Positions 18,554 through 57,660 of a DNA stretch of 64,000 nucleotides are shown piece by piece. The stretch is taken from NCBI GenBank assembly GCA_002721815.1, contig PBLQ01000001.1:288317-352316 (forward strand), read 5' to 3'. A program made the position numbers and the translations under genes. Within the stretch, counting starts at the first letter, position 1. Each line of letters opens with the position of its first letter. This DNA comes from Myxococcales bacterium (GTDB taxonomy: Bacteria > Myxococcota > UBA727 > GCA-2721815). The notes beneath the pieces were generated by a model. It was not told where the DNA came from and searched no databases. It saw nothing but the letters and a program-made list of their open reading frames with translations.

Positions 18554-19939
18554 ATGAACTGTTTAAAAACAACCCCAACGCTCTTACTGTTTTCATTCTT
18601 TTTCGCCAACGCTTCTTTCGCTGAAGATATTCTTACCTCGAAGACCGTCAAATGCTGGGAAGCAGCCATTTACGATAAAGATGGAGATGGATTTGCCAAC
18701 TCTGAAACAGGAACTGCCGATATTGCCTACATAGGAGGCGCTGAAAACCGTGAAACCTTCACGGTACTGACTGTGAGCTACAGCGAAAGTATTCCATCTG
18801 AATATGATCCTATTTTAACTCTTCTTCGTCTCGTTAGAGATCAAGATAAAATGACATGCCCCACAGGCTGGGTACGGTCGAGAGGGGACTGCAATGACGA
18901 CCCCGATGAGGGCGGCGCTGATGTGTTTCCTCGACGCAATGAAGTCTACGGCAATGGCCGGGACGACAACTGCAATGATCTGGTGGATGAGCCCGACCTC
19001 ATCTACTCGCCGAGCGGCCATAACAATCAAACCAACAAGTTTGATATTCCATTTTTCATTAATGACCCTGAGATAAAAAATGTGAAAGCGAACCCCTGGG
19101 TATCTCTTAAAGTCGAAGTCGAATACCAAAAACTTTCAAACACCAACCCTGAAACCTCATTCTCCTCCGGCTTAAAGAGCCTTAAATCATATGTGGCCTT
19201 TGGTTCAATCACATACGGAAAAGTGGAGCTGGACAATTTAGACCCCACCACTGTTTATCGTGCCCGTGTTCAATTTTATAAAACATCCCGTCGACGTGTA
19301 GGGGGTCTACCTATCAAAGTTGGCCACCCTTCGAACTGGTACTACTCCACCACCGATGGGCAATCTTCTATCAGCAAAGCCCGCACCAAAGCATTACTTC
19401 AGGGCTTTTATCAGTACTATGAAGGCAACCATCGTGGGTTAGTGGGGTATAAAGGTGCAGAAGATATAGATGGCACGCGCTACGGAGCCGATCAAGGCGA
19501 AGCATGGTGCTCAGAATTTTACAGCTGGGTCACTGATCACACTTTAGCAGGCATGGGGCACCGGAATAATGTTTCCAAAATGATGGACTATTTTAACGAG
19601 CATGATGCTGGTATTTATAACCCCACCAACTACCAAGTAAAAAACAAGATTAAACGCGGTGATTACCTCGGTGAAGACACCACAGGTGATGATGACAAGA
19701 ACCACTCTGCCATGTTCTTGGATTACGACACCTACCGCAATGTCATTTGGACCTTAGATGGCAACTCGGTCGGTTACAACGAAGAACCTGGCCTGGATAT
19801 CAGAAGTCGTGCGGCAGGCAATGAGGCAACCATTCGCGTGCGGCCAGTCACTTATGAAGTTAAGGACGAAGATGACGTTGTCACCACCTACTCAACCGTT
19901 CGCTACTGGGGACGCTTCGGCAAGAGCCCCCTTAAATAA
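18554..19939 (+). CDS. Secreted protein with a MopE-like Cys-rich putative metal-binding motif, the conserved family module, and a C-terminal putative papain-fold (CHAP/NlpC-P60-like) Cys-His hydrolase domain
   Basis: RBS gagga at 18544-18548, ATG at 18554. Signal peptide MNCLKTTPTLLLFSFFFANASFA. MTCPTGWVRSRGDCNDDPDEGGADVFPRRNEVYGNGRDDNCNDLVDEPD is MopE-like. C-terminal GADQGEAWCSEFYSWV (candidate nucleophile Cys), then ...KNHSAMFLDYD (His), then ...WTLDGNS (polar third residue). Spacing matches the CHAP/NlpC Cys-His-(Asn/Glu/Asp) layout. Confidence 0.6.
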   Translation: MNCLKTTPTLLLFSFFFANASFAEDILTSKTVKCWEAAIYDKDGDGFANSETGTADIAYIGGAENRETFTVLTVSYSESIPSEYDPILTLLRLVRDQDKMTCPTGWVRSRGDCNDDPDEGGADVFPRRNEVYGNGRDDNCNDLVDEPDLIYSPSGHNNQTNKFDIPFFINDPEIKNVKANPWVSLKVEVEYQKLSNTNPETSFSSGLKSLKSYVAFGSITYGKVELDNLDPTTVYRARVQFYKTSRRRVGGLPIKVGHPSNWYYSTTDGQSSISKARTKALLQGFYQYYEGNHRGLVGYKGAEDIDGTRYGADQGEAWCSEFYSWVTDHTLAGMGHRNNVSKMMDYFNEHDAGIYNPTNYQVKNKIKRGDYLGEDTTGDDDKNHSAMFLDYDTYRNVIWTLDGNSVGYNEEPGLDIRSRAAGNEATIRVRPVTYEVKDEDDVVTTYSTVRYWGRFGKSPLK

Positions 19940-19951
19940 ATCCCGCCGCTC

Positions 19952-19979
19952 AAGAAGGCCTCACTTTCGAGGCCTTCTT
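19952..19979 (+). terminator. Candidate intrinsic terminator hairpin downstream of the 18554..19939 gene
   Basis: aagaaggcctc-actttc-gaggccttctt: an 11-bp perfect stem with a 6-nt loop, beginning 13 nt after the TAA stop. The T-tract is weak (tt within the stem, then g). Confidence 0.45.
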
Positions 19980-20005
19980 GCTCATTGATCACCTCCACCT
20001 TTGGG

Positions 20006-21424
20006 ATGAAACACATGGCTAAAACATCTTTCAAATCTTTTTACCTCACAGTCGCTGTGCTCTTTCTTGGGGCCCCCTCAGTGGCTTTGGCCGACTGCTA
20101 CGACCGAGGTGACTGCGAAACCATTAACTGTTGGAATGCGGCTGAATTCGATAAAGATGGCGATGGTTACGCTTATGTGGGGTACGCTTACAGTGAATAT
20201 ATTGATGACGGTTTCGGTGATGATTTTGCTGACTTGGGCGATCGAGAGACATTCACCATCATCGAAAACGATGAACTGCCAGGTTGGACAGATTATGGTT
20301 TGTCTTTTTTTCGACTGGTTCGCCGTAAAGATCGCATGACCTGCCCCACCGGCTGGGTCAAAGCCCGCGGTGATTGTAATGACAACGATCCTCATATTCA
20401 CCCGCGCCAATTTGAAGTGCCTTACAATGCGATTGATGACAACTGTAACGGTCTCCAAGATGAGCCCAGCTTTGTCTACAACCCTTCGGGGAACCACAAC
20501 CGGTCCACTGGCTTTGACATGGGCTTTACGGTGAACGACCAAGAGGTGGTCGATGCCATCGAATCACCACTCGTGACCGTAAGAGTCAAAATTACCTACC
20601 AAGACCTTAAAGACACTTCAGCATCACGCACCCAGACCAAAAGTATCAAAAATTATTATTCTTACTGGGGTGATTATAAATATGCAGAGGTCGCACTCAG
20701 CCATCGCACGGCGGTTCGCCCCAACACCGTGTACCGCGCTCGTGTGCAGTTTGAAAAGCGATGGGTCTTCGACACGTCTACCTATACCAACGTGGGTGCC
20801 CCGTCAGACTGGTACTACACCACCACCACCGGATACGGCAAAGTGAATGAAGCAAGAAACCAAATTGTTCTGAAAGCTTTTCACCAATTCTACGAGAGCA
20901 ACCACCACAGTATCATTGGCTACCAGGGCAGCCATAATAAAGATGGAATACGCTATGGTGCAGATGAAGGAGAAAACTGGTGTGCAGAATTTTATGCCTG
21001 GGTAACCCAGTCCATTTTAAACGGAATGGGCCACTCACAGTACGTGAGCGATCTGAGGGCCTATTTCAGTGGCAAACGCGGTGAGATTCTGAACCCCACG
21101 AACAGCCAAATTCAAACCCGCATCAAGCCTGGTGACTTTATTGGTATCGCCACCGATAAATCAGACCCCAATAAAGCCACCCATGCCTCTCTGTTTTTGG
21201 CCTACGACAGTCATTTGGATGCCGTTTGGACCTTGGACGGGAATACCCACGGCTTCAATGAAACGCCAGACATCAATGATAAGAAAAGTCGGCGGGCAAG
21301 CAATGAAGTGTCCGTCCGGGTGCGTGGACTCGATTTTGAATACGATGAACTTGAGGATGGCACCCCGGTTACCACGCCCCTGATCAAAACTTGGGGTAAA
21401 ATCAAATACAATATGGTGAAATAA
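20006..21424 (+). CDS. Secreted paralog of 18554..19939 with a MopE-like Cys-rich motif and a C-terminal putative CHAP/NlpC-like Cys-His hydrolase domain
   Basis: ATG at 20006; the ORF caller's start at 19985 is TTG and lies inside or just after the terminator hairpin. Signal peptide MKHMAKTSFKSFYLTVAVLFLGAPSVALA. MTCPTGWVKARGDCNDNDPHIHPRQFEVPYNAIDDNCNGLQDEP; NTVYRARVQFEK; SDWYYTTTTG. GADEGENWCAEFYAWV...KATHASLFLAYD...WTLDGNTHG matches the neighbour's putative catalytic triad. Confidence 0.6.
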   Translation: MKHMAKTSFKSFYLTVAVLFLGAPSVALADCYDRGDCETINCWNAAEFDKDGDGYAYVGYAYSEYIDDGFGDDFADLGDRETFTIIENDELPGWTDYGLSFFRLVRRKDRMTCPTGWVKARGDCNDNDPHIHPRQFEVPYNAIDDNCNGLQDEPSFVYNPSGNHNRSTGFDMGFTVNDQEVVDAIESPLVTVRVKITYQDLKDTSASRTQTKSIKNYYSYWGDYKYAEVALSHRTAVRPNTVYRARVQFEKRWVFDTSTYTNVGAPSDWYYTTTTGYGKVNEARNQIVLKAFHQFYESNHHSIIGYQGSHNKDGIRYGADEGENWCAEFYAWVTQSILNGMGHSQYVSDLRAYFSGKRGEILNPTNSQIQTRIKPGDFIGIATDKSDPNKATHASLFLAYDSHLDAVWTLDGNTHGFNETPDINDKKSRRASNEVSVRVRGLDFEYDELEDGTPVTTPLIKTWGKIKYNMVK

Positions 21425-21481: not shown

Positions 21482-22633
21482 ATGGTAAACACCAGTGAAG
21501 AAGTTGAGCAAAAATATCTCCCAAGGGCATTGCCTATTTTTTCACGGTTCCCAGAACTCAAAAAAATACTGATTTACTGGGCCCTGTCCCGGTTGGTTTT
21601 AACCATCGCTGCGGGCGCTTCTCGTATTTTTTTCGATATACAAAAAGGTCATTTCGGCAATCCTTTCATTGATGCATGGGCCATTTGGGATTCGGGTTGG
21701 TACCTCAACATTGCTGAAAATGGTTATTCAGCTCATACCTCCGAACGCGGGCAAGCTTCGTATGCCTTTTTTCCACTTTACGCTTGGTTGATTCGGTGCT
21801 TGGGCTTTGTCCTGCAAAACGATGTTATTGCCGGCGTCGTGATTTCAAACATATCGTTTATTGTCGCTTGCTTTGCGTTCTATCGCTGGGCACGTCTAGA
21901 ACACGACGATGCCACGAGTGAAACCATGCTCATCACATTGGTGATGTTTCCTGCTTCATTTATTTTCACCGCGGTGATGACTGAGGGCCTTTTTGTGGCC
22001 TTAGCCATTATGTGTTTGCTGGCAGCACGGAAGGGATTTTGGGGATGGGCTGCGCTTTGTGCTTTGGCAGCGGTGCTCACCCGATCTATGGGCGTTTTTT
22101 TGGTGGTACCATTGGCGTACGAAATCATTCGCAAGCATCGTTCCATCATCGTTCCTCAAGTGTTGTGGTTGGGCATCCCACCTTTGGGGTGGGTGATCGT
22201 GGGCATCATTAATTACCAAGCCGCCGGCGATGCTTTTGCATGGGTGGAAATTCAAAAACAAGCCTGGCAGCACGTGAGCACCTTCCCACTCTCGGTGATT
22301 TGGGATGGTTTTTTCACCCCTGAGGAGCCTGCTTTCGCATTTAATTCGGCTTACAGCCTGGTGGTGGGCCTGTTGATCGTCGTGAGCTTCAAATACTTAC
22401 GGCTGGGTGATTATGGTTTGTCGTTGATCTTTTTCTTTTTGCCCCTTTGCTCGGGCATCGTCACCTTGTATTCCATGGTGCGTTACAGCGCGGTGGTTTT
22501 CCCGCTCTTTATTTTGATCGGGATTTTTCTGCATGCGCGACCGAAATATAAAATTGGCATTTGGGTTTTGTGTGGCGGCCTGCAAGTGCTATTCATGATT
22601 CTCTGGTCCACAGGCTCGTATTTCATCATCTGA
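21482..22633 (+). CDS. Polytopic GT-C-type membrane glycosyltransferase, PIG-V/Gpi18-like (Mannosyl_trans2-like) family
   Basis: About 10 predicted TM helices. The N-terminal luminal/periplasmic loop motif DAWAIWDSGWYLNIAENGY...QASYAFFPLYAWLIR resembles the WDSxHYLxIAxxGY signature of PIG-V-type mannosyltransferases. Family call is from recalled motifs only. Confidence 0.5.
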   Translation: MVNTSEEVEQKYLPRALPIFSRFPELKKILIYWALSRLVLTIAAGASRIFFDIQKGHFGNPFIDAWAIWDSGWYLNIAENGYSAHTSERGQASYAFFPLYAWLIRCLGFVLQNDVIAGVVISNISFIVACFAFYRWARLEHDDATSETMLITLVMFPASFIFTAVMTEGLFVALAIMCLLAARKGFWGWAALCALAAVLTRSMGVFLVVPLAYEIIRKHRSIIVPQVLWLGIPPLGWVIVGIINYQAAGDAFAWVEIQKQAWQHVSTFPLSVIWDGFFTPEEPAFAFNSAYSLVVGLLIVVSFKYLRLGDYGLSLIFFFLPLCSGIVTLYSMVRYSAVVFPLFILIGIFLHARPKYKIGIWVLCGGLQVLFMILWSTGSYFII

Positions 22634-24271: not shown

Positions 24272-25321
24272 ATGCTTCGCGGGTTTATTTTTGTTGTCAT
24301 TTTGGGGCTCAGCCTCAGCCCAAGCCAGTCTTTGGCTGCAGAGGGCCAATCAGAAGCCAAAGCCGAAGCTGGCGCAGAAGCCAAAGCCGAAACTGGCGCA
24401 GAGGCCAAAGCCAAAGCTGGCCCAGAGGCCAAAGCCGAAACTGGCGCAGAGGCCAAAGCCAAAGCTGGCCCAGAGGCCAAAGCCGAAGCTGGCGCAGAGG
24501 CCCAAACTGAACCAGAAGATGAGGGCCCCATTAAAGTTCTGCTCTTGGATCCCAAAATCCTCAATCTCGATGAAAAAACCGCCAAGCTCATCAGCAGCTT
24601 CATCACCGCTGAGCTGTCACAGCACCCAACCTTAGACATCATCTCCGGGGAAGACATGCGACGCATGATGGAGCTGGAAGCCGAAAAACAAACCGTGGGC
24701 TGCGATGATAACAACAACTGTCTGGCCGAATTGGCCGGCGCGTTGGGGGCCGATTTGGTCATCTACGGCGAACTGGGCAAATTGGGCAATCAATACATGC
24801 TCCAGCAAAGTTTGTTCAACACCAAAGCCGGTAAAGCCATGGCGCGTATTTCGGTGCAAAGCGAATCGGTGGATTCGATTCCCGGACAGCTCAGGCCCAA
24901 ACTGAGATACCTGGTCAAAGATTTTCTCCCTGAAGATGCTTCCGACGGGGGCCATGCCGTTGCCGTACAACCCACAGCACCAGCGGCACCTGACCCCGTA
25001 AAAGCGAAACCGATTCCTCTGACCTCTTGGGTGCTCTATGGCAGCGGTGGGCTCGGGCTGATTGCGGGCAGTGTAATGACGTATTTGGGAAGCCAATCAC
25101 TGACCGCTTTTGATGAAGCAAATAAAATATACGAAGAGTCCCTCAGTTCCGGTCAGGAAGATCCAGAATTTCTAACCAAGATGGGCGCTAAAGAAGATGC
25201 CGAAGAAAATTGGAATGCCCTGGGACAGTCTCTGCTTTGGGGAGGCGTCGGAACCATCACTTTGAGCGCTGTGCTCACCTTGGCCGGTCTTTATATCCAT
25301 CAAGAAGCTCATTCAGAATAA
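24272..25321 (+). CDS. Secreted/membrane-anchored hypothetical protein with an N-terminal Ala/Glu/Lys-rich tandem repeat and C-terminal hydrophobic segments
   Basis: Signal peptide MLRGFIFVVILGLSLSPSQSLA. Repeats AEAKAE(T/A)GAEAKAKAGPEAKAE. Central globular region with a CDDNNNC pair. TM-like segments IPLTSWVLYGSGGLGLIAGSVMTYLG and LLWGGVGTITLSAVLTLAGLYI. Confidence 0.6.
   Translation: MLRGFIFVVILGLSLSPSQSLAAEGQSEAKAEAGAEAKAETGAEAKAKAGPEAKAETGAEAKAKAGPEAKAEAGAEAQTEPEDEGPIKVLLLDPKILNLDEKTAKLISSFITAELSQHPTLDIISGEDMRRMMELEAEKQTVGCDDNNNCLAELAGALGADLVIYGELGKLGNQYMLQQSLFNTKAGKAMARISVQSESVDSIPGQLRPKLRYLVKDFLPEDASDGGHAVAVQPTAPAAPDPVKAKPIPLTSWVLYGSGGLGLIAGSVMTYLGSQSLTAFDEANKIYEESLSSGQEDPEFLTKMGAKEDAEENWNALGQSLLWGGVGTITLSAVLTLAGLYIHQEAHSE
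24340..24510 (+). repeat. In-frame tandem nucleotide repeat (about 30/60-nt units) encoding (AEAKAExGAEAKAKAGPE)n
   Basis: gccaaagccgaa(g/a)ctggcgcagaggccaaagccaaagctggcccagaggcc repeated with few substitutions. Confidence 0.8.
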
Positions 25322-25340
25322 ATCGTCTTAGGAGAACTCA

Positions 25341-28300
25341 ATGCGCAGATTCCATACCCGGCCCATGATTTTCATGGCCTTCTTTTTGTTCGCCTTGACA
25401 TCAGGCTGCACCATCTCCTCCAACGACGCAGGCAACACGGGTGGTGGTGATGACAACCAAAGCTTTAAAACCGTGCTGGGGTGCGACGATAAAGCCACGG
25501 TGGTCGAGCAAGGTGAACTGCTGGTTTGCCAATGCCCCACTGGTTACACCGATGTGGCAGGTGATGGCTCTCTGTGCGAAGAAACCAATGAATGCGAAGA
25601 CGAACTGCTCAACACCTGTCATTCAGACGCCACCTGCACCAACACCGATGGCAGTTTTGAATGTTCGTGTAATGCGGGCTTTGACGGTGACGGTCTTGAA
25701 TGCACCGATATCGATGAATGCACTTTAGGTTCAGACACCTGTGACGACCATGCCGACTGCGCCAATACAGCGGGTAGTTTTACTTGTACCTGTAAAGACG
25801 GCTGGGAAGGCGATGGGGAAACTTGTAACGATATTAATGAGTGTGCCAATGCCGACAGCAACAATTGCGATGTGAATGCCACCTGTACCAACATCGATGC
25901 CTCCTACACCTGTGAATGCAACACAGGGTTCCTGGGCAATGGCGAAAGCTGTACCGACATTAACGAATGCGATGATGACGAACTCAACGAATGCGATGTG
26001 AATGCCATTTGTACCAATACGCCCGGTGCTTACACCTGCGAATGTAAAGATGGCTATAACGACGAAGGCAACCAAGGCTTTGCTTGTTCCGCTATATCTT
26101 GTAACCCCATCGATCAGCCGGCCAATGGGACTTTAAATTGTGTTGGAAGTAATTACTATGGCGACATATGTGCAGTCACTTGCGGCAACGGCTATAATCT
26201 CAATGGTCCCATAGAACGTACTTGTCAGGCCAACGGTTTGTGGAGTGGCAACGATAATTCTTGCGTGCCCGCCAACTGTGGCGAGGTGATTATTGAAAAT
26301 GGAACCATGACCTGTCCTGCCGGTGGCACCACCTATCCGAATACTTGTACGGTCTCCTGTAACAACGGGCATAACCTCGCCGGCGTTAACTCCCTGATGT
26401 GCACTGCCAATGGCACCTGGGGCAATACGGCCCCCACCTGTAACCCGGTGAGCTGTCTGGCGACCAATCTTCCAGCACCTCCTTTTGGCTCAAAGCAATG
26501 CCCCAACGGCTCTACCTTTGGCAACAGTTGTACATTTACGTGCCAAGAGGGTTATACCCTCAGCAACGACACCCCCATCACTTGCTACGCCGATGGCAAC
26601 TGGAGTGCTTCAGCGCCTTCCTGCATTCCTGCCAGCTGTCCCACCCTCAGTGCTATCAGCGACGGGACCATTTCACTCTCCGATGGCACGGGCACCTTTG
26701 GAGACAGTGCTTCGTATTCATGCGATACGGGTTACCATTTAGAAGTGACTACCTGCACCACAGGCGAACCTAATGACGCTGGCGTCACAGAAGAAGTTTG
26801 TATCGTTACCGAACCCGCCGTGTGGACCCGGGACTGTCAAACCGATGGCACATGGAGCAACCAAGATGCTTCGTGCCAACCTGACCTATGTGACGCACTC
26901 GACACAGTAGCGAATGGAGGCGCTTGGAGCTGCAGTGATGACAATCGCTTTGACAGCACGTGCAGCGTGACCTGTAACACCGGATATGACCTTTCCGGTG
27001 AGGGCAGTCTCACTTGTGGTGTTGATGGCTGGAGTGGTTCGCCACCCACGTGCGCCCCTAAGGATTGCGGTGTTCTGGAGTCTCCCGCAAACGGCAATAA
27101 GGTATGCTCTAACAGTACAACCTACGGCAGTGAATGTTCTTTTTCATGTGACAACGGTTATGCGCTGAGCAATTCCTCAACCGTGACTTGCCGCGATGAT
27201 GGGACCTGGAGTGATGATCCGCCGACATGTATTCCTGCAAGCTGCCCTACCCTGAGTGCGGTAACCAATGGTGATGTGACACTTACAGGCGCATCTGGCA
27301 CCTTTGGCGTTGAAGCCGATTACACGTGCGACACGGGGTATCACCTCGAAATTACAACCTGCACCGACACTAACGATGGTGAAACATGTGAAACGACCCT
27401 GCCTAATTCTTGGTCAAGACTTTGTGGCGCCGATGGCAACTGGAGCAATCAAGCAGCCACCTGCATGCCTGACTCCTGTGCCGCTCTGCCACAGATTGAT
27501 AACGCCACCGCGTGGGATTGTACCAATGGCGATCTCTTTGACAGTCAATGCAGTCTCACGTGTCTGCTGGGCCACGATCTTTCAGGGGACGCCACACGCT
27601 CCTGTGGGGCTGATGGCTGGAGCGGCGATGCGCCTACGTGTACCCCAAAAGATTGTCAGGCTGTCACCGCACCAGATCACGGTTTTGTGGAACTAGGAGA
27701 GCTTGGCTCGCTTTATGGCGGGGCTGCCACCTACAGTTGCGCTTTGGGTTACAAGCTCATCGCCTATAATGGTGCTTCTGTGGGTTCTGCCACCACTGAA
27801 AGTGCTTGTACCAGCAATGGTGTTTGGTTCCCAGCGGCACCCACTTGCGCCGTGCAAACCTGCACCGAGCTCGCCACCCTAACCAACGGTACCCTCTCTT
27901 ATGCCAACCCAGACAACACCACCCACGTGGGCGCAGAGGCAACGTTTGCCTGTGAAGATGGTTATCACCTAGAAGCGGGCGACCAGTCACCCAGCAACTG
28001 GACCATCGAATGCGATGGTACCACCGATGGCAACAATGGCCAATGGAGCGGTGCTGCGGCCACTTGTGAACCCAATGTTTGCGAGCCCTTAGAAACGGTT
28101 AGTAATGGCGTTTGGGATTGTGATCTCAATCAAAATATTTTTGGTGAATCTTGCAGCATCGTCTGCGCAGATGGCTATACCCAGCAAGCGGGAGACGCAA
28201 CGCGCGCCTGCGTTTATGAAAATTTACAAACCAAATGGAGTGGTATTGCACCTTATTGCCAAGGCATTAATGAATGCGAAGCGACCCCCGACGCACTTTA

Positions 28301-31300
28301 CTGCGCTGAAAATGCATCCTGTACAGACGTCGACCCAAATCCAGGTGAGCTCGGTTATACCTGCAGCTGTAACACCGGTTACGAAGATCAAAGCGATGGC
28401 AATGGTTATATATGTGACCTTATGGACTGCACACCTTTTGTAACTGAAGTCACAAATGCAGCGTCACCTACTTATGAAAACTCCTGGTATAACGGTACCG
28501 CCGACATCATATGCGACGCGGGTTTTGAATACATCGGTGGAGAAACCAACGAATTCGGTCACGGTGTCGTCACTTGCAATGTTGATAACGGTGTTGGTGG
28601 TTTTATGTGGACCACACCGGGCACCTGCGAAAACATCGACGAATGCACTGCCACCAATACGGAAGGTGAAATCATTGGCGACTGTGGCGAAAATGGCCAC
28701 TGCATTGATGATACAGATGAAATGCCCGGCTGGTATTGCGGTTGTGACGCGGGTTATGAAACGGTGGGCCAATGGGATTCTGAGGATTCAGATAATCAGC
28801 CTGGCTGCGCTCCCATGGCGTGCCCACAATACACAGAGGATGTCGCTAATGGCGCTATGGTTTATGGCTTGGATGAATATTTGGGCACGACAGAAATCGT
28901 TTGTATGCCTGGGTATACTTACGTAGGTAACGAAACTACCACCACTGACTTACCCTATAAAGACAATGGTGTGATCACCTGCAATGTCATCGAAAACGGC
29001 AACCCCACTTGGAACGCTGTCGGTACCTGCGAAGACATCGACGAATGTACTGCTACCGATGCACAGGGCGAGATCGTTGGCGACTGTGGGCCCAACAGCC
29101 TGGCGTGCGTGAACGACGAGGCCGGCTGGCATTGTGATTGTAAACCAGGTTTTGAGCCCAGTGGGGATTGGACAGACAGCGATAATCTGCCCACTTGTGT
29201 GGAGCTACCTTGGATCGAAGTGACCGTGGGCGGGGCCTCTGAGGGGTGCATGCTCAATCCTTTGAATAACTGGTCCTATAATACCGAAGACTCTGATGGG
29301 GTTCATGAGCAGAGAACCCATGCAGAACACTTAGATGACCGTCTGAGCGCTCCTTCTTTCGCCTGTGGCCTCAAATCCGATCACACACTTTGGTGCTGGG
29401 GCTACCCCATTTTTGGCGAACGACCGCCTCCGCTTTACGCAAGAGCACAAAACTCAGGAATGGTCGATCTCAGCTGGAGTGAAAACACACTGCCCGTGCA
29501 AATCGGGACCGCAAATGACTGGGTCACGATAGACGCCGGGACCAAAAACCTTTGCGGCATTAGAGATGCAGATACCAATAATGAAACAAGCAACGATAGA
29601 ACCCTATGGTGTCTCGGCCAACACTGGGACAACACCGTTTACGGCGAAGCGTTCCAAATTGGCGACTGGGAAGACTGGCAAAGCATCGAAGTAGAGCGCC
29701 CCGGCGAGATGTGTGGCACGCGATACAATGAGAGCGGGGATAACCCTGACACCGATCTAAAAGAAAACCGTGTCTACTGTATGGGCTCTCTAACGGAAAA
29801 CCCCCAAACATACGAGTTTCAAGGCGGCGGCAATTGTAACCCAGACTATTCAGACCACTGTTATTCAGAAGGGGTCACTGAAGAAATCCACTTAGGGACC
29901 CGTGGTTCTTGTGAAATAGGGACAAGCATCTACAACGGGAACGCTACGACAAGCTCTTATTGTGAGTTGTTCGATAACAGCAATGTCAAAGATATGTTTT
30001 CTCCTTTTCAAGAGACAACGTGCGACGAATATAATAACTGTGAAACCAGTCCCCCTTTGGCCGCCCCTCAAAGCCTTGCCATGGGTGGCAGCCACCAATG
30101 CATCGTTGATACATTGGGTTCTCTTTATTGTTGGGGCTCAAACAGCAATGGTCAAACCGGTTTAGGGTTTAATATTGGATACGACAATGAACAAGGCGTG
30201 TGTGAGAAAGACATGCGCGGACAAACCCAATGTTATCAAACAATTGACCTTCCCATGACACTAAATGACGATGTATCCGGCGATTCTTTTAATCAATATT
30301 TAGAGGTGACCAAGCAACAAGCAGTGTGGAGCCGCGTTTGGGCGGGGGGTAACAACACCTGTGCAGAAAATGTGAATGGTGACTATTATTGTTGGGGCTC
30401 AAACAGCGTGGGACAGGTGGGTCAAGATCCCAGTTTTGAGCTTGTTGCAACCCCGCAGCACATGAGCCACCTAGAAAATGTTCAAGATATTGCCATGGCA
30501 GGGTGTAACAGTTGTGCCTTGACCGATTCAGGTGAGATTCAATGCTGGGGCGGTAACGACAAAGGGACGTTGGGCATCAGCGCCAATAAATCGCGCCCCA
30601 CAAAGGTAAGTGAACGGACATGGACCCATTTATCTACCGGGATGTTTCATACCTGCGGTATCACCCCCCTTGAATACGGCCACTCTTTGCGATGCTGGGG
30701 CTTAACGCATCTGCCAGTCCCAATCCAAACGGCGGCCGATGGGATGGCAGATACTTTTGAGGAGCTCAATCAGCTAACATACAGTCTGGGGTACCCAGAG
30801 CTTCTTTTTCAACCCACAACCGAGCGTGAAACGGCCTTTTTTATTGAATCACCCAAAGCCCTGGCCACGGGCGATACGCACAACCACCTTTTAACCGCAA
30901 ACCATAATTGGCGTTCTTGGGGCTCCAATTACTTTGATGAAGGTGTGTCCGTGGAGGACCACAGTGACCAAAACAATATGATATCCCTCCTCTACAGCAA
31001 CGTTCTTTATGAGTGGGACATTATGAACTCCGAAACGCAAACGCCTTACGCGTTCACCCAAATTGCAACCGGTAAGAAACATAACTGCGCTTTAAATTAC
31101 GACCGCGATGACCAGGATGCGAACTACCTGAAGTGTTGGGGTAACGATGCATGTGGACAAATTGGATACAGTATTCAGAATAACCAAGATGCGGAGCTGA
31201 CGGGCATGCCCCACGAACCTAAGGTATGGATGTCTGACATCGCTGAGCAAAACATTACACCTTTTAACGATAATGCAAATGAATTCAGCGACCCAAAACC

Positions 31301-32210
31301 TTGGACAAAAGTTGTCACAGGCGCGCACCACACTTGCGCCCTAAGACAAGTCGGCTCCAGCGAGGAGTTCGACGCGGATGAACTGTACCCGTTAGAGTAT
31401 TACCATCAACCCTATTGCTGGGGTCTCAATTTCATGGGTCAAGTCCCTCAGGGAGGCTCTTACTACGAAGACGAATCAGGGGAGATCAGTAACGGGTCGA
31501 GTTGCGTCCTTGATCTTTATGAAAGTTACTTTTTTGAAATTATCCCTGGCGTCTTTGAGTGGGATAGTTATGACAATAGATATCGCGAGTACAGCAACCA
31601 ACTCACCATCACACCGATGCCCACCCTCGTTGGTAGTCAGAATGATCAGGATTGGACAGATATTGCTGCGGGCGCTTACCATTCTTGCGGTATCCGTGGC
31701 GATAATGGTTCCCTCTTTTGCTGGGGCGATAATCGCTACGGGCAACTGGGAATCGGAAACTCGCCCACACAAGCCGACCAACCCCGCTTCGTAGGTACTG
31801 GCTGGTCTAAGGTTTTTGCAGGGTATTATCGTACTTGTGCGATTAAATCAGACAGCTCACCAACGGATCCAAATACCCTTTGGTGCTGGGGACTCGAAGC
31901 TGCAACCAGCCTGGGACAAGCCGAACGCAGTGCGGATGTCTGCAATATCCCCAAAGCGGTCAATTATGAAAGCGATCAAAGCCAAGAGTTTTTCGAAGAT
32001 CTCACCTCACCTCATAGCACCTGTCAGCGCCTCCCCACCAAAGTCTCCGAAGACACCGACTTTAACGAACTTCAGTTTGGCTTCTTGCACACCTGCGCAC
32101 TCAAAACTGATGATTCATTATGGTGTTGGGGCAACAACCAATACGGCCAGCTGGGCGATGGCGATATTTTGAGTACAACGCCACTCAATATTTCAATCAA
32201 CAGCAACTAA
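25341..32210 (+). CDS. Giant (2289 aa) lipoprotein with eukaryote-like modular architecture: calcium-binding EGF-like domains, about 13 Sushi/CCP (complement-control-protein)-like modules, further cbEGF modules, and a C-terminal RCC1-type repeat (beta-propeller) region of about 1000 aa
   Basis: RBS aggag at 25331-25335, ATG at 25341. Lipoprotein signal [23 protein letters not shown]. cbEGF: [35 protein letters not shown] (D-I-N/D-E-C...C.N..GSY.C.C..G(F/W/Y)), at least 5 copies. CCP-like: [57 protein letters not shown] and about 12 more, each with a conserved Trp and a C...C.C...G(Y/H)xLxG...C...G.WS...P.C pattern. RCC1-like: [93 protein letters not shown]. Its stop overlaps the convergent hydrolase gene by 4 nt. 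Confidence 0.85.
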   Translation: [2289 protein letters not shown]

Positions 32211-33016
32211 AGCGCGCGCAAGAATTCTTGCAGCGCTCGGGCGTAATCAGCGGAATAAGCATCGTTGTGCCCACCGCCGCGAATGGTGATGAATTCTTTG
32301 GGCTCGTTCGCCGCCGCAAAGAGTTCCTGGCCTAAAGCGTAGGGCACGATTTCATCGCGATTCCCGTGGCTGATCAACACCGGTCCTTGGTAATCTTTAA
32401 TGTTATCGATGGACGGGTATTTGTTTTGCATCAACAACTTCACCGGCAAAAAAGGATAAATGGTTTGGGCCACATCGGGCATGGTGGTGAAGGTGCTTTC
32501 GAGAACCAAAGCTTTGGGCTGGTGGTGCTTGGCCAAATGACTGGCCACGCTGCCCCCTAAAGACCGCCCTAAAATAACGACGTCTTCTGTTTTAATGTTT
32601 GAGATTTTCGCCAATTCCAAAAGCGCCGCTTCACCGTCTTGGTACAACCCTTCTTCGTTGGGTTGGCCTTCGCTCTTGCCGTAACCGCGGTAATCCACTC
32701 CCATCACCGTGAACTGGTGGGCGGTGGCCAGGTGTCTTAAAATCTCGGCGCGATGCCCAATGTGACCCGCGTTGCCGTGCAAATACAACAAGTGGCCCTT
32801 GGCGTTTTCGGTTTTGTGCACCAAGGCATGGAGTTTGTTGCCATCGGCATTGGTAAAGAAGTGGTCTTGCAGCGCATCGTCAGGTTGCAGATCATCAAAG
32901 GCGGTCCACGGTGCGGGAAAATAAACCATGCTGTTTTCGAGAAAAGCCAAAACCATACATAACCCCACATAGAAACAAGCCACGGAAACGGACGATACAA
33001 ATAGGCCGCGTTTCAA
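32207..33016 (-). CDS. Alpha/beta-hydrolase fold serine hydrolase (signal-anchored)
   Basis: N-terminal hydrophobic anchor (LFVSSVSVACFYVGLCMVLAFL). HGNAG oxyanion-region motif. Nucleophile elbow GRSLGGSVAS (GxSxG). Asp in HGNRDEIVP. His in GGGHND. Confidence 0.8.
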   Translation of the reverse strand: MKRGLFVSSVSVACFYVGLCMVLAFLENSMVYFPAPWTAFDDLQPDDALQDHFFTNADGNKLHALVHKTENAKGHLLYLHGNAGHIGHRAEILRHLATAHQFTVMGVDYRGYGKSEGQPNEEGLYQDGEAALLELAKISNIKTEDVVILGRSLGGSVASHLAKHHQPKALVLESTFTTMPDVAQTIYPFLPVKLLMQNKYPSIDNIKDYQGPVLISHGNRDEIVPYALGQELFAAANEPKEFITIRGGGHNDAYSADYARALQEFLRAL

Positions 33017-34588: not shown

Positions 34589-36418
34589 CTACCAGGTGAC
34601 TGGGACGGCCCTGTTTCGTTGGGTGGCATTTGTTCCGTCACCGATTTGGCCAAAAGAGTTGAGTCCCCAGCAATAGGCAAAATAGCCATCAACAATGGCG
34701 CAGGTGTGATCTTTGCCCGTATAGAGGCGCCGCCAAAACATTTCATCGGGAACATCGATTTCTTTGTAAGGCTGAGCCGTTTGCAAGTATTCATCTCCCG
34801 TGCCGCACGCGCCGTAATTATTAAAGCCCCAACAAGCGATCTTATGGGATTCATCTAAAACACAACTGTGATGGCCGCCGCTCTGAACGATTTGAATCTG
34901 TTGTGTGTAAAGACCCGTGGGTGTCACGGGAGACTCCTGAAGCGCACCACCGGGCGTTCCGTCATCCATTTGTCCAAAACCATCACTGCCCCAGCAAAGA
35001 ACCTTATTGCCTTCGACCATGGCGCACGAATGGTGATACCCCAATGCGACATGACCCACACTCACCACATCATATTCCTCTAAAACATTGATGGGCTCAC
35101 CGTGGTTTTCACCTGCGTCTATTAAACACTGGGCAGCATGGTTAATGCCCCAACACATGAGCTTCACATCGTCCGTCACCACGCAGGCATGTGAGTCCCC
35201 TATATGAACCTCACGAATTTCATCGGCGCCGCTCAAACCTGATACCAGTTTCGGGGTCATGGAACTTTCAAACAAACCGTTGCCGAGCTGACCCAGATCT
35301 CCTTTGCCCCAGCAAAATACTTTCGCTTGCTCGCCCATTGCCTGGGTGACCGCACACGTGAACATGCGTCCACCCGCCACTGAGACGACCGGGTCTTCCA
35401 AGGCCGTCACTTGAACCGGCTCTCTTCGAGTGATGGTGGTATTATCTCCCAGCTCTCCAAAGGCATTTGAGCCCCAGCACCACAAGGTCTGATCGGACTT
35501 GATGGCACACATGTGGTAGGCCCCAGCTGCAATGTAGTGGACGTCTTTAAAGTCAGGAATAACGCCTGGCACATTTCGGTCCTCTCCCGGCAACGAGCCA
35601 TCACCCAAGGTGTCGGAGCGACCCCAACAAGCCACCTCGCCAATACCGCCATGTAACACCGCGCAGGTACTCATCTCATCGAGCGCCATCCGCATCACTT
35701 TCACCGAAGGCTCGGTAGGCGGATCTTCATCGATCGGCTCGGGCGGATTGCCTGCATCAAATGGAGGCTCGGGCGCCACGCCCGCATCAATGATGGCTAG
35801 ACCAGCGTCGTCAGGCTCACTCAGTTGCAGACCCGCATCAAAAGGAGGCAAACAGGCGCCCTCCAAACAACCGTGGGGGCAGTCAACATAGGTCGGCACA
35901 TAGCGGCAGATTCCTTCTACACACTCTCCGTCTTGCTCGTAAATCATCAAGGTCATGTCATCGAGACATGCTTGCTCGGGTGGGTTGTCACAATCACCAC
36001 AAATCACCTCTTCGACCCCTTCTCCCTTGAGGTTGATGAGGGTTTCGGCCTTGTTTTGACTGTTGCTCACCAGTTTCAAAACGCCCTCGTAGGCCTGGGC
36101 TGCAGCGGGGGTAAAATTGATGCTCAGATCTACGGACTGACCGCCTAAGATCGACAGCTCTGAGCCCAACACCATGAAGACACCTTCATCGGATTCGATG
36201 GTTATGTTTTCGAAGACCAGCTCTTGTTGACCGGCATTGGCCAATTGGACGGTTCGGCTGGCAGTGAAATTGAGGGGCAACTCACCAAAATCGAGAAGGT
36301 CGGTGCCCACCACCAACAACGGCGGGTTTTGCACCACATAAGCCTCAGTGTCGCAACCGCCACAGGCCGTGTTGAGACCAGTGAACAGACACAACATTAT
36401 CAAGACAAAATATTTCAT
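34589..36418 (-). CDS. Secreted protein, array member 5 (last transcribed): N-terminal Ig-like 'choice-of-anchor D'/ASH-like module, an 8-Cys module and a C-terminal RCC1-type beta-propeller
   Basis: Signal peptide MKYFVLIMLCLFTGLNTACGGC. CDTEAYVVQNPPLLVVGTDLLDFGELPLNFTASRTVQLANAGQQELVFENI...LKLVSNSQNK...LKGEG. ICGDCDNPPEQACLDDMTLMIYEQDGECVEGICRYVPTYVDCPHGCLEGACL. RCC1-like CWG repeats: VACWGRSDTLGDG, LWCWGSNAFGELGDN, VFCWGKGDLGQLGNG, LMCWGINHAAQC, VLCWGSDGFGQMDDG, IACWGFNNYGACGTG, AYCWGLNSFGQIGDG. Confidence 0.85.
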   Translation of the reverse strand: MKYFVLIMLCLFTGLNTACGGCDTEAYVVQNPPLLVVGTDLLDFGELPLNFTASRTVQLANAGQQELVFENITIESDEGVFMVLGSELSILGGQSVDLSINFTPAAAQAYEGVLKLVSNSQNKAETLINLKGEGVEEVICGDCDNPPEQACLDDMTLMIYEQDGECVEGICRYVPTYVDCPHGCLEGACLPPFDAGLQLSEPDDAGLAIIDAGVAPEPPFDAGNPPEPIDEDPPTEPSVKVMRMALDEMSTCAVLHGGIGEVACWGRSDTLGDGSLPGEDRNVPGVIPDFKDVHYIAAGAYHMCAIKSDQTLWCWGSNAFGELGDNTTITRREPVQVTALEDPVVSVAGGRMFTCAVTQAMGEQAKVFCWGKGDLGQLGNGLFESSMTPKLVSGLSGADEIREVHIGDSHACVVTDDVKLMCWGINHAAQCLIDAGENHGEPINVLEEYDVVSVGHVALGYHHSCAMVEGNKVLCWGSDGFGQMDDGTPGGALQESPVTPTGLYTQQIQIVQSGGHHSCVLDESHKIACWGFNNYGACGTGDEYLQTAQPYKEIDVPDEMFWRRLYTGKDHTCAIVDGYFAYCWGLNSFGQIGDGTNATQRNRAVPVTW

Positions 36419-36559: not shown

Positions 36560-38344
36560 TTACCACGACACCGGCACAGGAACGTACTGGTTCATTTCGG
36601 TACTGCCAGCCCCGAGCTGACCATAGCCATTGGAGCCCCAACAGAACACTTGATGCTCCGAGTCTGCCGCGCAGGTGTGGGATGACCCCCCGTAAACCCG
36701 ATACCATTGCGTATCATTGGCGGGGGCAACAATGGGCATGAGGCTCTGCTTCTCTTGCACATTTGCTTCTCCCGATCCGCACGCCCCGGAGGAATTATGA
36801 CCCCAACAAGAAATGGTGCGATCCATCATAATGGCACAAGAATGATACGACCCACTGGCAATCCCCAACACCGGATCATCCTCGAGACCTGCTGGTGACA
36901 TGATCTGGGCGTATTGTGCCACATTGCTGTCCGCGTCGACCTGGCCGTAGCCATTCCCCCCCCAACATTTCACCTTGTCATCTTTTTCGATCACACAAGA
37001 ATGATGCATCCCCAATGCCAACTGTTGCATGGGGTTGTTGTCGTCCTCTTCGTAGACTTCCACAGGGGTGGCTTGATTTTGGGTGTTGTCCGAGACCAAG
37101 CACTGGTTGTGGCCATTCCATCCCCAGCAATACACTTGATTGGACTCTAACATGGCACACACATGATATTCTCCGGCTTCGATGCTGATAAGGGACACCC
37201 CCTCTGGCAAGCCCGTTACTTGCTCCGCCGTGGTGGAATTATCAAACGAGCCATTCCCCAGCTGCCCCCAATCGCCTTGCCCCCAACAGTACACCTTCTG
37301 TTCAGCGTCCGTTTCGTCAGCACGGGTCACCGCACAAGTGAAGTTGCGGCCGGCGGTGAACATTTCGACGGGATCTTCAATCACGCTCACCAACTGGGGG
37401 GTGTAATCGGTGATGTTGCTGCCATTGCCCAGCTCACCATAATTATTGATGCCCCAACACCATAGCGTGTTGTCGATTTTGCTGGCGCACATGTGATAAG
37501 AACCCGCCGCAAGATATTTCACATCGGTAAAATTAGGAATCACCAGCGGCACATTGCTGTCCGTGGTCACGTCTGGCCCCTGGCCCAAAATACCGTGATA
37601 CCCCCAACACGCCACTTGCTTATCTTCATCTTGCCACAGCAGCGCACAAGACCCTGCCTGTCCCAATGCCATGGATAACATAGAGAAATGGCCGTCCAAT
37701 ATCTCATCGGAAACCCCAGCATCCATGACCGGATCCGACTCTGGAACCACGCCGGCGTCTCCCTGTGGCAAACACGCCCCATCTTCACAGCCATAAGGAC
37801 AGAAAACAGTGCTGGGCTCATACCGACAGATGCCTTCGACGCACTCACCGTCTTCAACGTAAATCATTAAGGTGTTTTCATCCAAACAGGTGTCCTCTGG
37901 CGGGTTGTTACAGTCTTCACAAACGACGTCTTCATCGCCCTCTCCCGTTAAAGAAATGGTGGTCTCAGACTTGTCTTGCGAATTGCTCAAGATGGTGAGG
38001 GTGCCTTCATACACTTTGGCCTCTAAGGGTTTGAATGAAACGATCAAGTCCATGGACTGCCCACCCAGAATACTGGTTTCACCGGGTGTGATGGTGAAGA
38101 CATCGCCTCCCTCGCTGATTTCAATGTTTTCAAAAACCAACTCTTGCTGGCCAGCGTTGGCCAGCTGAATCGTTCTAGAGGCGATATAGTCCACAGGAAT
38201 TTTACCAAAATCTAAAAGATCGGTACCGGAAACCAATAAAGGAGGATTGCTAACGACGTAAGCTTCAGTGTCGCAGCCACTGCAATTCAGTTGAAAACTT
38301 GCCAATCCAATTACCAATGCGGACAACCAACCTTGGCGCATCAC
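36560..38344 (-). CDS. Secreted protein, array member 4: Ig-like module, 8-Cys module and RCC1-type beta-propeller (closest paralog of 34589..36418)
   Basis: MMRQGWLSALVIGLASFQLNCSGCDTEAYVVSNPPLLVSGTDLLDFGKIPVDYIASRTIQLANAGQQELVFENI. VCEDCNNPPEDTCLDENTLMIYVEDGECVEGICRYEPSTVFCPYGCEDGACL. CWG repeats (LWCWGINNYGELGNG, VYCWGQGDWGQLGNG, VYCWGWNGHNQC, VKCWGGNGYGQVD, ISCWGHNSSGACGSG, VFCWGSNGYGQLGAG). Confidence 0.85.
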   Translation of the reverse strand: MMRQGWLSALVIGLASFQLNCSGCDTEAYVVSNPPLLVSGTDLLDFGKIPVDYIASRTIQLANAGQQELVFENIEISEGGDVFTITPGETSILGGQSMDLIVSFKPLEAKVYEGTLTILSNSQDKSETTISLTGEGDEDVVCEDCNNPPEDTCLDENTLMIYVEDGECVEGICRYEPSTVFCPYGCEDGACLPQGDAGVVPESDPVMDAGVSDEILDGHFSMLSMALGQAGSCALLWQDEDKQVACWGYHGILGQGPDVTTDSNVPLVIPNFTDVKYLAAGSYHMCASKIDNTLWCWGINNYGELGNGSNITDYTPQLVSVIEDPVEMFTAGRNFTCAVTRADETDAEQKVYCWGQGDWGQLGNGSFDNSTTAEQVTGLPEGVSLISIEAGEYHVCAMLESNQVYCWGWNGHNQCLVSDNTQNQATPVEVYEEDDNNPMQQLALGMHHSCVIEKDDKVKCWGGNGYGQVDADSNVAQYAQIMSPAGLEDDPVLGIASGSYHSCAIMMDRTISCWGHNSSGACGSGEANVQEKQSLMPIVAPANDTQWYRVYGGSSHTCAADSEHQVFCWGSNGYGQLGAGSTEMNQYVPVPVSW

Positions 38345-57495: not shown

Positions 57496-57660
57496 AAGCA
57501 GTCCTTCTCTAAGACGCGGATCTTACCGCTAACCACCATAAAAATCCAGATGAACCCGGTTACAAATCCAATGACCCTCATTTCTTTTGTAGGAGCTAAG
57601 GTTGTGAGCAGGCCAACCAATGGGCTAAACTGTCGATATCCAAAAACAAAAGGAAGCATT

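Follow-up and report, generated by a model that had tools for sequence, protein, structure and literature searches.

A 2289-residue putative lipoprotein of a Myxococcales bacterium combining calcium-binding EGF modules, a Sushi/CCP array of probable eukaryotic origin and an RCC1-type propeller region

Results

Module organization of the giant protein

The stretch of DNA analysed here (the window, 64,000 nucleotides) covers positions 288,317 to 352,316 of contig PBLQ01000001.1 in assembly GCA_002721815.1 of a Myxococcales bacterium (Bacteria; Myxococcota; UBA727; GCA-2721815). Our subject is a giant gene within it, a single intact open reading frame (ORF) at 25341..32210 on the + strand, which begins with ATG and translates into 2289 amino acids (aa). 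Its product contains 155 cysteines, 121 of which lie within the first 1420 residues, and consists of a signal peptide, a short linker, a strongly acidic stalk (aa 48-1287; D+E 15%, K+R 1.5%) of eight EGF-type and 13 Sushi/CCP-type (complement control protein) modules, and an RCC1-like region (Table 1). Across the whole protein, Pfam scores were 193 bits over 11 stretches for Sushi (PF00084), 74 bits over five stretches for EGF_CA, 87 bits for EGF_3 and 57 bits for cEGF, together with 206 bits for WD40_RLD, 146 bits for RCC1_2 and 111 bits for RCC1 (RCC1-like families PF00415, PF13540 and PF25390). Of the domains vWA, HYR, pentraxin, collagen, FN3 and C-type lectin, Pfam found none, and it found no subtilisin domain (PF00082) either; neither Pfam nor NCBIfam scans detected a toxin or immunity domain. 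The protein is named "hypothetical" at NCBI because no NCBIfam model matches it.

The N-terminus, MRRFHTRPMIFMAFFLFALTSG followed by Cys23, fits a PROSITE-type lipobox expression, with AFFLFALTSGC as the matching stretch. The lipobox is kept as FAFTSGC in an orthologue from a second lineage (P0002, described below), similar lipoboxes occur in the neighbouring paralogues, and the first 47 residues, which comprise the signal peptide and linker, are 79% identical between the two orthologues.

Calcium-binding EGF modules (cbEGFs) were recognized by six Cys, an N-terminal [DEQN]-x-[DEQN]2-C and a C-x-[DN]-x4-[FY]-x-C motif (Pfam PF07645, PROSITE PS01187 and PS00010). In the N-terminal EGF block, E1 to E4 match exactly both the PROSITE EGF_CA pattern (PS01187) and the Asx-hydroxylation pattern (PS00010), and the ratio of non-synonymous to synonymous change (dN/dS, omega) against P0002 is 0.02. 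The distal E5 to E7 are divergent; they keep a (G/N/D)I(N/D)EC start and the six Cys, and their EGF_CA scores fall below the cutoff when scanned singly (24.7 bits for E7, 13.7 bits for E5, no match for E6).

A Sushi/CCP module spans about 60 residues and has four Cys, of which Cys2 sits in a C-x-x-G-[YFH] turn and Cys3 and Cys4 enclose an invariant Trp; its fold is a beta-sandwich with 1-3 and 2-4 disulfides. Thirteen Sushi-like units were delimited by their Cys/Trp pattern, and each was then scanned singly against Pfam. All 13 show the four-Cys/Trp/CxxG pattern over 58 to 85 aa, the longer units having inserts after Cys2. Eleven of them (S1 to S11) scored 25.1 to 50.3 bits against a Sushi PF00084 gathering cutoff of 20.7, whereas S13 reached 13.4 bits and S12 gave no Pfam match. 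Both of these nevertheless retain four Cys and the Trp (C...CxxG[YF]...C...W...C), and a profile of S1 to S11 matches them at E-values of 1e-5 to 1e-7 in a six-sequence search and with 90% probability over 45 columns in hhalign. Seven units carry six Cys (S1, S2, S3, S5, S6, S8 and S11), two have an insert after Cys2 with a further Cys pair (S4 and S7), and four are of the canonical 4-Cys type (S9, S10, S12 and S13). Near-identical DNA repeats were absent from the gene, the best direct repeats being 60 to 82% identical.

In the RCC1-like region, 13 C[WLM]G repeats were counted between aa 1352 and 2262. An AlphaFold model of the region, built on a 41-sequence alignment, had a mean predicted local distance difference test score (pLDDT) of 71.6, a predicted template modelling score of 0.77 and about 56 predicted strands. 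Searched with Foldseek against the PDB, this model matched UVR8, RPGR, RCC1, HERC1/2 and the plant CR4 ectodomain at probability 1.0, in agreement with the sequence search; the sequence and fold matches listed did not include BLIP-II. The confidently modelled blade blocks are 71% identical to the orthologue, as against 38% for the low-confidence loops. Between RCC1 repeats 3 and 4 lies a Cys-rich insert (aa 1490-1575, about 29808-30065), which is nearly unalignable across lineages, holds three of the four positions at which a Cys is not conserved between the two orthologues, and takes the form of an additional beta-hairpin in the model, at low to moderate confidence.

These results bear on a sequence-only reading, an earlier annotation made by a model from the letters alone. 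The module types that it had named (Sushi/CCP, cbEGF and RCC1) are supported by Pfam, for cbEGF also by PROSITE and for RCC1 also by Foldseek, and its RCC1-type region of about 1000 aa stands on the repeats and the propeller fold matches. Its count of about 13 Sushi modules is secure for the 11 that pass PF00084, while S12 and S13 are kept by pattern and profile match only; failure against the Sushi model, the outcome named beforehand as fatal to the assignment, is thus confined to these two. The same two are the only Sushi units interleaved with cbEGFs, as all of them had been said to be, the other 11 forming an uninterrupted block behind the N-terminal EGF modules.

Relatives, composition and selection

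A protein identical to the giant is recorded as MBL90392.1 ("Myxococcales bacterium") on a 367-kb contig, and also occurs in ENA, JGI and Logan assemblies. A second lineage (L001, GCA_902624725.1) holds the full-length orthologue P0002, which is 72% identical and has the same neighbours on both sides. A third lineage (L004) was recovered from a lagoon metagenome at 2.4x coverage (ENA ERZ28548095 NODE_1564); the gene is in pieces there, and the downstream hydrolase, kinase and RCC1 paralogues are kept. Against P0002, dN/dS ranged from 0.02 to 0.23 with 152 of the 155 Cys retained, and between L001 and L004 omega was mostly 0.03 to 0.25, showing that the gene is under purifying selection.

The GC content, the GC content at third codon positions (GC3) and the relative synonymous codon usage (RSCU) of every part of the gene lie inside the spread of 30 window genes, and GC resembles the surroundings. 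This comparison with flanking genes, which the sequence-only reading had proposed, indicates a native gene, and a recent foreign origin on compositional grounds was rejected. The bacterial host that it had assumed is likewise confirmed by the uniform composition of the contig, the bacterial neighbours and the syntenic orthologues in independent assemblies. A scan of 185,579 GTDB species genomes found, at its level of sensitivity, no close relative of the Sushi region or of a polyprenyl synthase encoded in the window; that set represents the lineage poorly. Named relatives of the neighbouring genes include "Bradymonadaceae bacterium" and "Myxococcales bacterium".

Recombination and length variation

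Nucleotide (nt) identity among the three lineages was compared in 300-nt windows. Between the window and L001 it is 91 to 100% over 25429-27828 (from the EGF block to S9; 10089-12500 in L001), whereas the upstream genes reach only 50 to 65% and the part from 28129 onward 50 to 80%. The opposite holds for L001 and L004, which share 75 to 94% in the 5' part and 76 to 99% from 27829 on. In this comparison the L001 gene combines a stalk resembling that of the window gene with a distal part resembling that of L004, with an approximate breakpoint inside the Sushi array (Table 1). Moreover, dS against P0002 runs along the gene from 0.07 to saturation, a range beyond selection alone, which argues for homologous recombination between lineages. 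At the protein level, identity to P0002 is 94 to 98% in the stalk up to S10 and 54 to 59% in the RCC1 region. The downstream alpha/beta-hydrolase gene (32207-33016) is also 85 to 94% identical between the window and L001, against 50 to 65% for flanking genes; since this gene and the 5' 2.4 kb are far more alike than their flanks, a recent exchange of segments between the lineages is indicated.

The array also varies in length. Exactly 588 nt, corresponding to S5, S6 and S7, are missing in frame from the L004 gene (L004 about 2700-2740; window 26885-27472). Four small frame-breaking indels were further detected in that gene, which may be low-coverage assembly errors or the onset of pseudogenization.

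Kinship of the Sushi modules with animal CCPs

When the 725-aa Sushi region was searched against sequences with a solved structure, it matched CR1 (E 6e-101), CR2 (1.6e-56) and factor H (1.8e-47), with further matches to beta2-glycoprotein I, MCP, DAF and E-selectin. For unit-by-unit comparison, 746 Sushi units were extracted from 26 animal matches. The extra Cys pair of the seven 6-Cys units aligns exactly, at two positions, with 6-Cys units of Ciona intestinalis SVEP1-like proteins, which also gave the best per-unit identities (46 to 50%; best proteins XP_018667880.1 and XP_026693209.2). Over the whole array, identity to animal proteins is 25 to 30%. On these matches the Sushi modules are homologous to animal CCPs; convergence, which the sequence-only reading had entertained as deep convergent domain shuffling, is excluded by the CR1 match and by a 6-Cys subtype that tunicate SVEP1-like units share, their identity reaching 50%.

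The same reading had described the Sushi repeats as divergent from each other, which is correct (sibling units are 22 to 59% identical), and had taken this divergence as a sign of ancient amplification rather than recent acquisition, which does not follow. The spread within the array is as large as that between animal units, so that divergence alone cannot show an ancient amplification inside bacteria. Furthermore, four units have animal units that outscore every sibling (36 for S1, 24 for S2, 68 for S9 and 3 for S11), and an already diverse block could therefore have been imported. Mutual best partners within the gene are S3/S6, S4/S7, S5/S8 and S12/S13, and only these pairs look like intragenic duplications.

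In the searches run, bacterial Sushi proteins were confined to this family, in one narrow group of marine lineages. Scans with the 725-aa Sushi region, in which only close relatives are detectable, found no relative among the GTDB species genomes and only an identical sequence (MDTD01200357.1) in the JGI metagenomes; plasmid and phage collections held no Sushi relative. Four metagenomic giants consisting of Sushi modules only (P0007, P0076, P0080 and P0025) were considered as bacterial relatives and rejected as animal SVEP1 genes, their loci showing exon-like fragments beside pentraxin, HYR, vWA, EGF and BTB domains. Within the literature collection searched, no relevant paper came up on Sushi arrays in bacteria or on EGF/RCC1 lipoproteins of Myxococcota. 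Judged from this distribution, the Sushi array was most likely acquired once from a eukaryote by the ancestor of a narrow lineage.

Genetic neighbourhood

Directly upstream of the giant gene lie three ORFs on the same strand (Table 1), which are syntenic in L001, where a 321-aa ORF occupies the position of the 349-aa gene. The product of the latter, in which AEAKA/ETGAEAKAKAGPEAK repeats take up about 70 residues and a C-terminal segment is hydrophobic, matched no family in the library scans of the window; the gene is probably co-transcribed with the giant gene. The two membrane proteins are candidates for the GT-C glycosyltransferase type. The 383-aa protein has no Pfam match of its own, and its assignment comes from homologues; the 506-aa protein has no Pfam match either, and a profile search against PDB sequences found nothing for it. 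Two such candidates beside a Cys-rich exported protein suggest periplasmic glycosylation, a low-confidence lead: the synteny with the giant gene is kept only in the close lineage L001, and distant homologues of the membrane genes stand in unrelated contexts, not beside Sushi or RCC1 genes.

Cys-rich RCC1 proteins form an island in the window, where six propeller proteins of this type were counted besides the giant, five of them with lipoprotein signal peptides; their stalks are of ASH-Ig and TSP3. Downstream lies a set of proteins built from ASH/HYDIN-type Ig domains, TSP3 repeats and RCC1 propellers (Table 1), which are 30 to 55% identical to one another and 21 to 26% identical to the RCC1 region of the giant. 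This set appears to be a lineage-specific expansion of surface proteins assembled from eukaryote-like modules. At the latter identity, the proposal that the head of the giant is a recent derivative of the neighbouring RCC1 paralogues was rejected. The ORF at 57346-60930 starts with GTG and overlaps a thioredoxin-domain gene (56542-57495) and an opposite-strand ORF (region 56542-58004); its first 70 residues are rich in Arg and Gly, unlike a signal peptide, and the true start is probably further downstream.

Elsewhere in the window, a 2011-aa protein with SpvB, FG-GAP, TcdB_midN and RHS domains (Tc/Rhs-type toxin) is encoded at 5370-11405 (+). It is preceded and overlapped by the gene of a 1802-aa acidic protein with no Pfam match, which stands at the start of the window and may be truncated (both within 38-11405, +). 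Two adjacent secreted paralogues of 461 and 479 aa (18554-21424, +) have the motif CW(E/N)AA..DKDGDG(F/Y)A in common in their N-terminal parts; one of them matches a MopE-type metal-binding motif, and an equivalent gene is present in L001. No tRNA or Rfam match was found in the window.

Table 1. Coordinates of the features of the giant gene and its neighbourhood (positions in the window)
Feature	Position	Strand	Basis or remark
Membrane protein, 383 aa, about 10 transmembrane segments, GT-C-type (PIG-V/PMT_2-like)	21482..22633	+	Homologues (E about 1e-48) pass Pfam Mannosyl_trans2 and PMT_2
Polytopic membrane protein, 506 aa, weak GT-C-like candidate, invariant SDKxP loop	22635..24155	+	2 of 30 homologues weakly PMT_2, 1 of 30 GT87
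Signal-peptide protein, 349 aa, AEAKA-type repeats, ends 20 nt before the giant ORF	24272..25321	+	Translation
Shine-Dalgarno-like AGGAG	25330..25334	+	6 nt 5' of the ATG, read from sequence
Signal peptide and lipobox, aa 1-23 (...FALTSG, then C23), probable lipoprotein	25341..25409	+	Translation; PROSITE PS51257-type regex match
Low-complexity S/N/G/D linker, aa 24-47	25410..25481	+	Translation
N-terminal EGF block: partial EGF E0 (aa 48-80) and cbEGFs E1-E4 (aa 81-250)	25482..26090	+	Pfam EGF_CA, EGF_3, cEGF
Eleven tandem Sushi/CCP modules S1-S11 (aa 251-975)	26091..28265	+	Each unit alone above the Pfam Sushi gathering score
Approximate inter-lineage recombination breakpoint, within S10/S11	27830..28130	+	Three-way identity
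E5-S12-E6-S13-E7 in alternation (aa 974-1287), all divergent: three cbEGFs and two 4-Cys Sushi-like units	28260..29201	+	Module map by Cys/Trp pattern
RCC1-like repeat region, aa 1288-2289	29202..32207	+	Pfam WD40_RLD, RCC1, RCC1_2; variable loops and inserts
Four tandem lipoproteins, ASH/HYDIN-type Ig with or without TSP3, and RCC1 propeller	34589-36418, 36560-38344, 38377-41811, 43604-45463	-	Family scans, lipoprotein signals
Fifth protein of the same row, lipoprotein signal, ASH and TSP3 only	41877-43601	-	Family scans
ASH only	50634-52244	-	Family scans
TSP3 and RCC1, without ASH-Ig, no clear lipoprotein signal	57346-60930	+	Family scans

Discussion

To our knowledge, Sushi/CCP modules are regarded as an essentially metazoan invention, viral mimics apart. 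Long tandem Sushi arrays together with cbEGFs recall SVEP1/polydom, and the extra Cys pair of seven bacterial units is that of the 6-Cys arrays of SVEP1 and the selectins. The bacterial protein differs from these in lacking a transmembrane segment and any vWA, HYR, pentraxin, collagen, FN3 or C-type lectin domain, and in having a lipobox signal peptide, an intron-less gene and an RCC1 head. With CR1, CR2, factor H, DAF and MCP, the top matches among solved-structure sequences, it shares uninterrupted strings of CCPs; however, its array is fused to cbEGF and RCC1 parts, which these regulators of complement activation (RCA proteins) lack, and the kinship holds at the level of the module only. 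E1 to E4 resemble fibrillin in following one another head to tail as cbEGFs that carry the complete consensus for calcium binding and Asx hydroxylation, at 40 to 50% local identity, but four to seven cbEGF units are present here against more than 40 in fibrillin, and TB and hybrid domains are missing. Consequently, the giant is not an orthologue of SVEP1, selectins, RCA proteins or fibrillin, since their other defining domains are missing.

Closer company is found within the phylum. Large Myxococcota proteins with cbEGF arrays and RCC1 repeats, often with an S8 protease, are numerous; examples are P0037 ("S8 family serine peptidase") and P0042 and P0091 ("EGF domain-containing protein [Polyangiaceae bacterium]"), which show the same pairing in large secreted proteins. 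Those of the EGF-RCC1-S8 kind carry a subtilisin and no Sushi modules, whereas the giant has no protease, and the RCC1 regions are about 22 to 26% identical. The neighbouring ASH/TSP3/RCC1 proteins likewise share a Cys-rich stalk, a C-terminal propeller and, in the four tandem copies, a lipoprotein signal, and differ in that their stalks are of ASH-Ig and TSP3 rather than EGF and Sushi modules and that they have a single propeller. BLIP-II of Streptomyces and the CRINKLY4/ACR4 ectodomain of plants are secreted or extracellular propellers of the RCC1 type, but single seven-bladed ones without a long modular stalk. In this context, the impression of the sequence-only reading that the whole architecture is exotic was too broad: the cbEGF and RCC1 pairing is a known theme of the phylum, further RCC1 propeller proteins lie in the same window, and only the Sushi array is unusual. 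On its module content, the protein is best filed with the Myxococcota stalk-plus-RCC1-propeller secreted proteins, set apart by a probably eukaryote-derived CCP array.

With a probability of roughly 0.55, we read the giant as a Sec-exported, probably lipid-anchored, adhesin-like protein of the cell surface or envelope, in which a binding head is carried on a long stalk and the Sushi array is of eukaryotic origin. The signal peptide and lipobox would direct Sec export and lipid anchoring, and calcium at the cbEGF junctions would stiffen the disulfide-rich stalk. Arrays of cbEGFs and of CCPs, as in fibrillin and factor H, form stiff rods, on which the proposed stalk shape is based; from known module sizes, such a rod could span several tens of nanometres. 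The acquired Sushi array would have been ameliorated, partly re-duplicated within the gene, and is now presumably reshuffled between lineages by homologous recombination. Lipidation, surface exposure as opposed to a periplasmic site, rod shape and binding function are what we infer from these features.

The RCC1 region, of 13 to 14 blades and most likely a double propeller, would be the ligand-binding end, because every paralogue keeps the RCC1 head while the stalks differ, because the head loops vary most and the blade cores are conserved, and because of what related propellers do. Indeed, the RCC1/BLIP-II propeller group is bacterial for the most part and counts a secreted binder of high affinity among its members (PMC9218822), an insecticidal toxin complex that bears Rhs contains an RCC1-like propeller, and bacterial RCC1 proteins take part in interactions with hosts (bioRxiv 10.1101/2023.11.21.568195). 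Most likely, the function would be contact-dependent binding, as an adhesin for prey or other cells, for particles or for the surface of a eukaryote.

Several points weigh against this adhesin-like reading. Position -3 of the lipobox, at which Leu is the commonest residue, is Thr, and lipidation is a pattern match only; the surface location is deduced from the same N-terminal features. An AlphaFold model of the E5-S12-E6-S13-E7 block on a 3-sequence alignment was unusable as structural support for the Sushi fold (pLDDT 39.5). About 56 predicted strands are likely enough for 14 four-stranded blades, hence two seven-bladed propellers, a figure taken from repeat and strand counts and not from a seen structure. 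In the RCC1 head, non-synonymous changes were not clearly in excess, and omega there is mostly 0.07 to 0.25; the single stretch of the region with an omega of 0.82 has a tiny dS, and dS against the window lineage is saturated in the head. The variability of the head may therefore reflect relaxed loops and recombination instead of selection for new ligands. Moreover, the eukaryote-to-bacterium direction of transfer is read from the distribution of Sushi modules and not from a rooted tree, and the GTDB and JGI scans used exact 8-residue peptides, so that a global rarity of bacterial Sushi proteins is not established.

Rather unlikely, in our judgement, is a structural role, in which the protein would be a fibrillin-like, calcium-dependent component of a matrix or surface layer whose propellers self-associate or anchor. 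The tandem cbEGFs with their full calcium-binding consensus, as in fibrillin, would suit such a scaffold, as would the extremely acidic stalk, its strong sequence conservation and the many Cys-rich paralogous lipoproteins with calcium-binding TSP3 repeats in the same island. However, TB/8-Cys and other assembly domains are absent, the gene is single-copy in a rare lineage, and the variation of the head loops between lineages fits recognition better than a conserved self-assembly interface.

It is unlikely that the protein is a mimic in which the CCP array of an animal-associated bacterium binds complement-like or matrix components of a host, either to evade or to attach. The strong similarity to CR1, CR2, factor H and DAF would fit this, as would the nearest single units, of the same 6-Cys subtype, in Ciona SVEP1-like proteins, and the lineages are marine, one copy being from a lagoon sample and another from a marine metagenome record. 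Yet the similarity is generic, at the level of the module and of 25 to 30% over the array, and the comparison was one of module-level homology. Tunicates may rank first just because they are rich in 6-Cys units; nothing about the contigs, which stem from metagenomes of the water column or a lagoon, points to association with a host, and the window contains no other typical symbiosis gene (e.g., ankyrin or Sel1 expansions).

Still less probable is an inhibitor or toxin-related binder, with propellers acting like BLIP-II or as the targeting part of a contact-dependent killing system together with the Rhs/Tc gene of the window. BLIP-II is a secreted RCC1-type binder (PMC9218822), the insecticidal complex mentioned above unites an RCC1-like propeller with Rhs (bioRxiv 10.1101/2023.11.21.568195), and the SpvB/TcdB/RHS protein is encoded on the same stretch. 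That gene, however, lies 14 kb away with unrelated opposite-strand genes between, the giant has no toxin or immunity domain, and a soluble inhibitor needs no stalk of 1240 aa. Finally, that animal EGF/Sushi DNA was misjoined to a bacterial contig in assembly or binning is barely credible: metagenomes do hold animal SVEP1 exons resembling Sushi-only giant ORFs, and two of the assemblies are unusually alike in the 5' part of the gene, but an uninterrupted 6.9-kb frame leads from a bacterial lipoprotein signal through Sushi modules to a bacterial-type RCC1 region, and such a chimera is not tenable because composition and codon usage are native, the same fusion with syntenic neighbours recurs in three independent assemblies (72 to 100% identity), the Cys are conserved and dN/dS is low.

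A bolder extension of the adhesin-like reading deserves mention, although we hold it to be tentative and on balance doubtful. A block of several 6-Cys CCP units of the selectin/SVEP1 type would have moved from a marine animal (deuterostome or tunicate-like) into marine Myxococcota, between resident cbEGF and RCC1 parts, and would persist as a stalk cassette that is kept by selection, recombines, changes its number of units and binds animal or other eukaryotic surfaces or complement-like molecules; the adjacent GT-C enzymes might glycosylate it in the periplasm. If this were true, such an animal-derived, glycosylated cassette would give bacteria an equivalent of the EGF/CCP proteins that animals glycosylate.

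In brief, the giant is an unusual, probably horizontally acquired mosaic of domains and not a new kind of system, and no new principle or mechanism is implied. The presence of 11 to 13 canonical CCP units, including the 6-Cys subtype, in an intact and selected bacterial gene would surprise many, and makes this a clean case for how animal extracellular modules enter and persist in bacterial surface proteins; such modules need many disulfides, calcium and possibly glycosylation. The dynamics of the gene can be followed in three lineages, with a near-identical stalk across divergent genomes, a breakpoint within the array and an in-frame difference of three units. If no eukaryotic molecule is bound, the protein is one more modular head-on-stalk lipoprotein of an expanded set, and its value is mainly for annotation; if the head or stalk does bind eukaryotic molecules, it would point to an unrecognized interaction of planktonic Myxococcota-like bacteria with animals or protists.

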